This document shows, piece after piece, positions 3,183-27,547 of a stretch of 64,000 nt of DNA (positions are counted from its first letter, which is position 1; each line of letters opens with the position of its first letter). The stretch lies in the NCBI RefSeq assembly GCF_056712565.1, contig NZ_CM160072.1, one strand, 5' to 3'. Position numbers and translations under genes: made by a program. The notes under the pieces were generated by a model. It ran no database searches. It saw nothing but the letters and a program-made list of their open reading frames with translations, and had not been told where the DNA came from.

Positions 3183-6573
<3,391 letters not shown>

Positions 6574-25436: not shown

Positions 25437-25475
25437 AACAAAACGGCCTCCTGTCAGGAAGCCGCTTTTATCGTG
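25437..25475 (-). terminator. Putative rho-independent terminator downstream of dps
   Basis: Imperfect hairpin ggcctcctg/caggaagcc flanked by A-run and T-run. Confidence 0.35.
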
Positions 25476-25505: not shown

Positions 25506-26153
<648 letters not shown>

Positions 26154-26271
26154 TTAGATATATTGATAAGAACAATTCTTATTTATTTGCTCGCTAGGAA
26201 TTTTCGGAATAAATATGCTTTTGCATAATTCGATATATAAAGACGGTGTAGAGGAAAAGTAGCGAGAAAAT

Positions 26272-26297
26272 CTGCATGGTTATGCATAACCATGCAG
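26272..26297. terminator. 26-bp perfect palindrome immediately downstream of rhtA (probable rhtA terminator, within the dps upstream region)
   Basis: ctgcatggttatgcataaccatgcag; followed on the minus strand by a T-rich run. Confidence 0.4.
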
Positions 26298-26307
26298 AAA
26301 TGTAAAT

Positions 26308-27195
26308 TTAATTTATGTCTAATTCTTTTATTTTGCTCTCTTTGCGTACTGTCAGCGTAGAACCCATTGAAGCGGCGATGATAGCGCCGAGCGCCAGCAG
26401 CTGTATGGGTGTCAGTGTTTCTCCGAGGAAAATCATCCCGGAAACGGCAGCCAGCGCCGGTTCCATGCTCATTAGCGTACCAAATGTGCGTGTTGGCAAA
26501 CGGGTGAGGGCAATCATTTCCAGCGAATAAGGCAGAGCGGTCGAGAGAATAGCGACAGCCAGACCCAATGGAATAACCGACCAGTGCCAGAGTGCTTCAC
26601 CAGCCTGAAGCGCTCCAATTGGCACGAAAATTAACGCTGCAATCAACGAACCAATTGCCACCGTCGCAGGACCATGTTCCGCTCCAGCGCGTTGCCCACT
26701 TAAAATGTAAATAGCCCAACAAGCCCCGGCCCCCAGTGCCAGTGCACAGCCGGTTAAATCGACATGGGAAACGTCTTGCCCCAGCGGTAGCAGGAACCAT
26801 AGACCAAGAACCGCCAGCACAACCCAGACGAAATCTACCGGGCGACGAGAAGAGAACAGTGCCACCGCCAGTGGTCCGGTGAACTCCAGCGCCACCGCTA
26901 TACCCAGCGGTACCGTCTGAATAGAAAGATAAAAAAGATAATTCATTCCACCCAGCGAAACGCCGTAAAACAACAGCGGTAATCGTTGCTCTTTGGCAAA
27001 GCGCAGTCGCCATGGCTTAAAGAACGCGATGAGGATCAGCGTGCCTAATGCCAGACGCAGCGCAGTGACCCCCGGTGCGCCCACCAGAGGAAAAAGTGAC
27101 TTAGCTAACGAGGCTCCACCCTGAATAGACGCCATGGCAACGAGCAATATGACTATTGGTAACCAGACCGGCATTTTACGTAATGAACCAGGCAT
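26308..27195 (-). CDS. rhtA: Threonine/homoserine exporter RhtA (DMT family, 295 aa)
   Basis: Start trimmed to MPGSLRKMPVWLPIVILLVA; polytopic membrane protein. Confidence 0.92.
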   Translation of the reverse strand: MPGSLRKMPVWLPIVILLVAMASIQGGASLAKSLFPLVGAPGVTALRLALGTLILIAFFKPWRLRFAKEQRLPLLFYGVSLGGMNYLFYLSIQTVPLGIAVALEFTGPLAVALFSSRRPVDFVWVVLAVLGLWFLLPLGQDVSHVDLTGCALALGAGACWAIYILSGQRAGAEHGPATVAIGSLIAALIFVPIGALQAGEALWHWSVIPLGLAVAILSTALPYSLEMIALTRLPTRTFGTLMSMEPALAAVSGMIFLGETLTPIQLLALGAIIAASMGSTLTVRKESKIKELDIN

Positions 27196-27547
27196 CCTTT
27201 CTCCCACAAATATCTAAACCTAAGTAAAGCGTGGAGTGTACTGGATATACCCAATGCTGGTTGAGCATTTGTTGAAAAAATTTTCCCCCGTTTTGACTAA
27301 AATGCGCCAGGATTGATGGAATCATTAGTCTGGTGATTAGGAATAATCTGGATGAATGACAGGGAAAACATGCGTAATACTTACGCAGTTCTCTGAAAAA
27401 GTGATTTAAATTTAGATGGATAGCGGTGTATGGAAACGTTCTGTTACATGAAATGGTCCGTTAGACATCATAAATCGCGAAGAGTTTCCCATTAATTTTT
27501 GATATATTTAAAACTTAGGACTTATTTGAATCACATTTGAGGTGGTT

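Follow-up and report, generated by a model that had tools for sequence, protein, structure and literature searches.

The perfect palindrome that lies in the spacer between rhtA and dps of Escherichia coli is likely to reflect, at the level of the DNA, an RNA stem-loop with which the rhtA mRNA ends. The initial annotation of this DNA had considered that the palindrome might be simply the rhtA terminator. The part of that proposal that places a hairpin at the 3' end of the message is supported by the anatomy of the element, by the covariation of its arms, and by a strand bias in the mismatches that the arms tolerate. The proposal needs refinement with respect to the U-tract, as it is the stem-loop and not the U-tract that is conserved.

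A long perfect palindrome directly downstream of rhtA

The DNA studied here, called the window throughout, is the whole stretch of 64 kb that was analyzed, and an identity match assigned it to E. coli ATCC 11775. The sequence ctgcatggttatgcataaccatgcag at positions 26272-26297 had been described as a perfect 13/13 inverted repeat, and the letters read exactly so. The symmetry extends by a further pair at either end, so that the perfect palindrome measures 28 bp (26271-26298, TCTGCATGGTTATGCATAACCATGCAGA). The distance of 10 bp claimed to separate the shorter repeat from the rhtA stop codon was confirmed, the gap spanning positions 26298-26307, and so was its location in the rhtA-dps spacer, dps lying downstream of rhtA (Table 1). 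The genes of the region, glnH, dps, and rhtA, are all encoded on the minus strand, ompX being the only one on the plus strand. Upstream of ompX, at positions 27430-27495 (plus strand), there is a 21-codon coding sequence, METFCYMKWSVRHHKSRRVSH, which the ATCC 11775 annotation lists as hypothetical and that of MG1655 as YliM (b4736).

Table 1. Features of the rhtA-dps region and their positions in the window
Feature	Position	Strand	Basis or remarks
Canonical dps intrinsic terminator	25440-25468	minus	terminator scan; GC-rich 13-bp stem followed by UUUUGUUUUG
dps CDS	25506-26009	minus	transcription start at about window position 26048, by coordinate transfer from K-12 848,950
Dyad CTATTAGTGTGATAGG	26096-26111	minus	in the sole sequence-conserved block of the spacer across genera
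C-rich, G-poor 60 nt, candidate rut-like Rho-loading region	26211-26270	minus	14 C versus 5 G
Tail after the stem	26261-26270	minus	UUUUCUCGCU in ATCC 11775; AUUUCUCGCU in K-12 and most E. coli
Perfect 28-bp palindrome/hairpin	26271-26298	minus	sequence and fold
rhtA CDS (threonine/homoserine exporter)	26308-27195	minus	stop codon at 26308-26310

The element at 26271-26298 is the longest perfect palindrome of the window. By chance, 64 kb should contain about 1e-3 palindromes of 13/13, and in 100 first-order Markov (Markov-1) simulations the longest arm was 12, so that a length of 13 was never reached. ctgcatggttatgcataaccatgcag has no second occurrence in the window, up to a tolerance of 3 mismatches. 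It had also been proposed to look for the same palindrome elsewhere in the genome. To this aim, complete E. coli genomes were searched by BLAST with a 30-nt query spanning the palindrome, the two strands of the palindrome being counted as the same locus. An exact match of at least 28 nt was found in 5407 of the 5426 genomes, always at one locus per genome. Overall, 5407 to 5420 of the 5426 genomes carry the palindrome at one locus each, and no second copy was detected among near-identical sequences of about 24 nt or more, the range to which the search is sensitive. The RefSeq annotations of ATCC 11775 and MG1655 list no feature in the rhtA-dps spacer. Likewise, a scan against Rfam 15 returned no family covering the hairpin above noise; the lone overlapping match was to RUF4, on the opposite strand, with 22 bits versus a gathering score of 55 (E = 0.21).

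The rhtA-sense RNA forms a stable stem-loop

In the sense of rhtA, the RNA reads UAA-auuuacauu-UCUGCAUGGUUA-UGCA-UAACCAUGCAGA-UUUUCUCGCU. It forms a 12-bp stem in which the 5' arm (26298-26287) and the 3' arm (26282-26271) enclose the loop UGCA (26286-26283). The stem starts 9 nt past the rhtA stop codon and is AU-rich, with 5 G-C pairs among the 12. Because the UGCA loop is self-complementary, the dyad is perfect over its full length; this perfect symmetry is specific to Escherichia and probably incidental. When the 91 nt around it are folded, the hairpin is the dominant structure (minimum free energy [MFE] of -18.1 kcal/mol, z = -3.85), and none of 200 shuffled sequences folded as well. Folded as single-stranded DNA, the hairpin has an energy of -12.3 kcal/mol (z = -6.4). 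A consensus terminator scan listed it as terminator-like on the rhtA strand, beside the dps terminator. The sense RNA therefore has what an intrinsic terminator has in its first part, a stable stem-loop close to the stop codon.

We then compared the alleles found within E. coli. ATCC 11775 carries a T on the rhtA strand at window position 26270 (AUUUUCUC), which leaves the palindrome at 28 bp, while K-12 and most E. coli carry an A at this position (AAUUUCUC), extending the palindrome to 30 bp. In one strain, at locus L006, the sequence is AAAUUCUU and the palindrome reaches 34 bp. The corresponding tails are AUUUUCU in ATCC 11775, AAUUUCU in K-12 and most strains, and AAAUUCU in the single strain. 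Within the species, a longer stem or palindrome is thus traded for a shorter U-run. Such a gain of stem at the cost of the U-run is unlike the outcome that would be expected from purifying selection on a U-tract.

The stem covaries across Enterobacteriaceae

A scan for RhtA provided 80 loci (L006 to L085) from Escherichia, Citrobacter, Salmonella, Enterobacter, Kosakonia, Buttiauxella, Leclercia, Lelliottia, Atlantibacter, Franconibacter, Pantoea, and other genera. The order rhtA then dps is found in 79 of these 80 loci, with a spacer that is typically about 300 nt long (range, 197 to 405 nt). A strong hairpin starting 1 to 15 nt past the rhtA stop codon is present in about 70 of the 80. The interior of the stem is wholly different between genera and yet complementary, as illustrated by the arm pairs CUGCAUGG/CCAUGCAG, UACCGUGG/CCACGGUA, UCGCCCGC/GCGGGCGA, and CAGCAUGAG/CUCAUGCUG. 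In an alignment of 50 sequences, RNAalifold derived a consensus stem of 10 pairs with compensatory double changes at every pair. When a 15-pair helix was considered, 85.3% of the cells were paired, compared to 69.2% in shuffled alignments, and 0 of 500 shuffles scored as high. Furthermore, the helix contained 136 double-change cells (46.6 in shuffles), and its covariation score was 0.515, compared to 0.19 in shuffles and 0.06 to 0.14 in controls with slid partners; related sequences are not independent, so that these shuffle statistics overstate significance.

Loop lengths, measured by a strand-blind palindrome finder, run from 3 to 9 nt, odd values being as frequent as even ones. Within the first ~60 nt past the rhtA stop codon (window 26250-26310 and loci L006 to L085), many genera retain the outer arms UAUU...AAUA, together with the adjoining AAUAUUC, to a greater extent than pairing requires, even where the interior of the stem is entirely different. 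We speculate that this stretch might be an AU-rich, RNase E-type site.

Two Mangrovibacter loci (L071 and L074) differ from this picture. The stop-proximal, U-less hairpin is absent from both, and 28 to 60 nt past the rhtA stop codon they harbor a GC-rich hairpin of the conventional kind, with a U-run behind it (GCCCGUUCAAACGGGCUUUUCUU and AACCCGUUCACCCGGGUUAUUUUUU). From these sequences, it looks as if the Mangrovibacter lineage had swapped the element for a canonical terminator.

Arm mismatches point to an RNA stem

Covariation alone cannot separate an RNA stem from a DNA palindrome, and we examined the mismatches between the arms instead. A G·T combination can form a wobble pair in the rhtA-sense RNA only; it is mismatched both in the opposite strand and in a DNA duplex. 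With the strand-blind palindrome finder, we counted 32 G·T versus 4 A·C mismatches. After reduction to what we judged to be independent events, about 17 G·T remained versus 4 A·C (binomial p = 0.004). Similarly, a MAFFT alignment gave 39 G·U versus 17 A·C over all 15 pairs, and a hand tally of the ten core pairs, from which a misaligned Pantoea row was excluded, gave 24 G·U versus 7 A·C; the strand-asymmetry test comprises roughly 20 to 30 events. In addition, fixed 60-nt segments folded better in the sense orientation in 49 loci versus 29. The bias in mismatches and the bias in sense folding together imply selection on an RNA hairpin of the rhtA transcript. The comparative sequence data thus point to the RNA stem of this transcript, and not to a protein-recognition sequence, as the target of selection, its structure and not its sequence being what is kept.

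The U-tract is short in E. coli and absent in most relatives

The tail that follows the stem varies. The ATCC 11775 tail, UUUUCUCG, contains 5 U in 8 nt and has a tail score of 3.58, while that of K-12, AUUUCUCG, which follows a longer stem, scores 2.99. By comparison, the score of the dps terminator is 4.45, and the median of the rhtA hairpins across genera is 1.71. We defined a U-tract as a U run directly after the stem, since requiring at least 5 T in 8 is too strict even for dps terminators (UUUUGCAC). A UUUU run directly after the stem was found in only 5 of 71 rhtA hairpins versus 48 of 71 dps terminators at the same loci. The usual post-stem sequence across genera is AAUAUyC, and most loci have no U-tract. 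The flank upstream of the stem is U-rich, and there is no A-tract upstream. The dps terminator of the related genera consists of a different GC-rich stem followed by UUUUGCAC.

Base composition downstream of the hairpin was also analyzed. In the 60 nt past the hairpin, 72 loci contained on average 13.6 C versus 6.8 G, and C exceeded G in 66 of the 72. This skew is larger than that of the rest of the spacer (Wilcoxon p = 1.6e-7, for sequences that are not independent). Most of the about 70 loci carry the sequence features of a protective stem-loop, namely, a stable 3' stem-loop with reduced U and no upstream A-tract, and the enrichment of C over G just downstream is present as well.

A model for the 3' end of the rhtA message

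We propose that, upon transcription of rhtA, the hairpin would fold in the nascent RNA and fix its 3' end within the rhtA-dps spacer. A 3' end set in this way would make rhtA monocistronic and would insulate dps from read-through. This could be achieved by two routes. In Escherichia, and particularly in ATCC 11775, where UUUUCU follows the stem, the hairpin could itself work as a Rho-independent terminator of modest strength. Among most relatives, and perhaps in E. coli too, a hairpin lacking a U-tract and followed by about 60 C-rich, G-poor nucleotides could be combined with Rho-dependent termination slightly downstream; 3'-to-5' exonucleases would then trim the transcript back to the hairpin, which would protect the message. 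We infer both that the transcript ends at the hairpin and which route is used, base composition being what suggests Rho dependence. Intrinsic termination may be inefficient, given the short U-tract of ATCC 11775 and the even shorter one of K-12.

Published transcript data from K-12 were consulted. In a SMRT-Cappable-seq study, rhtA (b0813) is a single-gene operon transcribed from 850,130, and a separate start at 848,950 serves dps (PMC6131387 supplement). A hairpin at the 3' end of rhtA is in agreement with a monocistronic rhtA and a separately started dps. The Term-seq tables of Adams et al. (2021) place the 3' end of the K-12 dps terminator at 848,340; they list no entry for rhtA and none at K-12 849,14x-849,19x, an observation that counts against the model but may reflect low expression of rhtA. 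A literature search combining rhtA and dps with terminator or intergenic topics returned nothing relevant to this spacer, the study of Shimada (2014) concerning the rhtA-ompX spacer and not the rhtA-dps one.

Relation of the hairpin to dps

An alignment of the whole spacer showed that only the final ~110 nt ahead of the dps ATG are conserved in sequence. This block comprises the ATAG/CTAT dyad (Table 1), the -10 region GCTATACTTA, the 5' untranslated region, and the ribosome-binding site; the ATAG/CTAT motif resembles the known OxyR site of dps. About 150 nt of unalignable spacer separate the hairpin from the conserved dps promoter block. In this alignment, the hairpin is anchored to the rhtA stop codon and lies outside the conserved dps control block.

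The initial annotation had also regarded the palindrome as compatible with a dimeric regulator site influencing dps, and this proposal did not hold up. An operator of a dimeric, sequence-specific transcription factor, with the 13-bp arm as half-site and acting at a distance on dps or rhtA, is a very unlikely explanation. It would account for the perfect dyad of 28 to 30 bp in Escherichia, which is far beyond chance, and for its position, as the 30-bp palindrome of K-12 (849,172-849,201; window 26270-26299) lies 222 to 251 bp upstream of the dps start, inside a fragment described as the dps regulatory region (PMC5553809). However, the half-sites differ at orthologous loci (CTGCATGG, TACCGTGG, and TCGCCCGC, among others) despite the conservation of dps and of its promoter block, and both arms change together. 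The spacing of the arms varies too, as the loop may be odd or even and measures 3 to 9 nt, and the bias toward G·T mismatches would be meaningless for a site in duplex DNA. Moreover, no second copy was detected in E. coli genomes (near-identical sequences of at least about 24 nt by BLAST), about 150 nt of unalignable DNA lie between the palindrome and the conserved dps control region, and the only reported binder is Dps itself, a non-sequence-specific protein, in an in vitro footprint (PMC5553809).

Antipov et al. (2017) proposed a reading of the palindrome as a structural element of the DNA, a cruciform-prone repeat that would be a preferred contact for Dps or other nucleoid proteins and tune the topology of the dps promoter, possibly in addition to a role as RNA. 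In favor of it, inverted repeats and REP elements are overrepresented among Dps ChIP-seq sites, and dps promoter activity is decreased about 1.5-fold in a dps-null strain (PMC5553809, PMC4433220); the stability of the hairpin as single-stranded DNA also fits. We nevertheless consider this unlikely. Dps was found to bind more weakly to the distal fragment bearing the repeat than to the proximal fragment of the promoter (PMC4433220), and the same authors explain the effect on expression chiefly by a relief of competition at the proximal Fis and IHF sites (PMC5553809). Any terminator hairpin would show equal affinity for Dps, and a Dps-contact role leaves the comparative pattern unexplained: the excess of G·T over A·C reflects selection on one RNA strand and not on a symmetric cruciform, and in every genus the position of the element is tied to the rhtA stop codon. 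We give slightly less credence to a dual use, in which the element would end rhtA transcripts and would also couple rhtA transcription or local supercoiling to the dps promoter by means of a cruciform, a nucleoid protein contact, or a conditionally bypassed hairpin, thereby serving as the distal Dps autoregulatory contact suggested by Antipov et al. If this were true, the conserved outer arms UAUU...AAUA and AAUAUUC would represent a recognition feature. Finally, the start of a small-protein gene can practically be dismissed. An ATG-initiated open reading frame of 36 codons (26183-26293, minus strand), encoding 36 amino acids, is indeed present, with its ATG inside the palindrome. However, E. 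albertii and other Escherichia clades carry it in a truncated or altered form, Citrobacter lacks an intact counterpart, and it is unannotated in both ATCC 11775 and MG1655; the stem would also occlude its start codon. We rejected this frame as a gene, as it is not conserved; it is probably no gene.

Significance of the rhtA stem-loop and comparison with known systems

With the palindrome taken as the 3' stem-loop of the rhtA message, the region upstream of dps loses a candidate regulator site, and rhtA gains a defined 3' end element. Beyond annotation, this result is of little import. The K-12 copy has already been published and is an ordinary feature of a well-studied locus. What the comparison adds is a clean, conserved 3' stem-loop without a U-tract and with covariation in about 70 species of Enterobacteriaceae. 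The rhtA hairpin could serve as a test case for intrinsic termination versus Rho-dependent termination followed by trimming, and the natural alleles AUUUUCU, AAUUUCU, and AAAUUCU are suited to this.

The repeat is the same sequence as the one studied by Antipov et al. and Melekhov et al. Antipov et al. (2017) described a "30 bp inverted repeat" as central to a Dps DNase I footprint 216 to 281 bp upstream of Pdps and speculated that it affects promoter topology (PMC5553809), and Melekhov et al. (2015) reported Dps footprints in the dps regulatory region (PMC4433220). The K-12 palindrome at 849,172-849,201 lies inside the footprint at 216 to 281 bp. Unlike the view taken there of a DNA structural element for Dps, our comparative data favor a hairpin of the rhtA-sense RNA. 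Since Dps favors inverted repeats and REP elements generally, contact with Dps is expected for any palindrome that resembles a terminator, and the footprint at this position probably reflects this general liking and not a dedicated site.

The rhtA palindrome is similar to REP/BIME elements in that it is extragenic, lies at the 3' end of a gene, and could stabilize the upstream mRNA. Unlike those elements, it is found at a single locus per genome and has no REP consensus. With intrinsic terminators, represented here by that of dps, the rhtA stem-loop shares a similar energy and size, the sense orientation, the location directly after the coding sequence, and, in ATCC 11775, the UUUUCU that follows. 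It differs from them by an AU-rich stem and by a U-run that is short (3.58, versus 4.45 for dps) and is absent in most relatives.

A third type of 3' end was described by Dar and Sorek (2018), who found that Rho-dependent 3' ends of E. coli are stable stem-loops with reduced U, no upstream A-tract, and a mild excess of C over G downstream (PMC6061677). In their model, the stem-loop guards the RNA against PNPase and RNase II, the rut sites being located just downstream (PMC6061677). The ATCC 11775 tail, with its four U, is unlike these ends and leans toward intrinsic termination. Nevertheless, a stem-loop just past the stop codon, a mostly U-less tail, the lack of an upstream A-tract, and an excess of C over G downstream are all features that the rhtA element has in common with Rho-dependent protective stem-loops.
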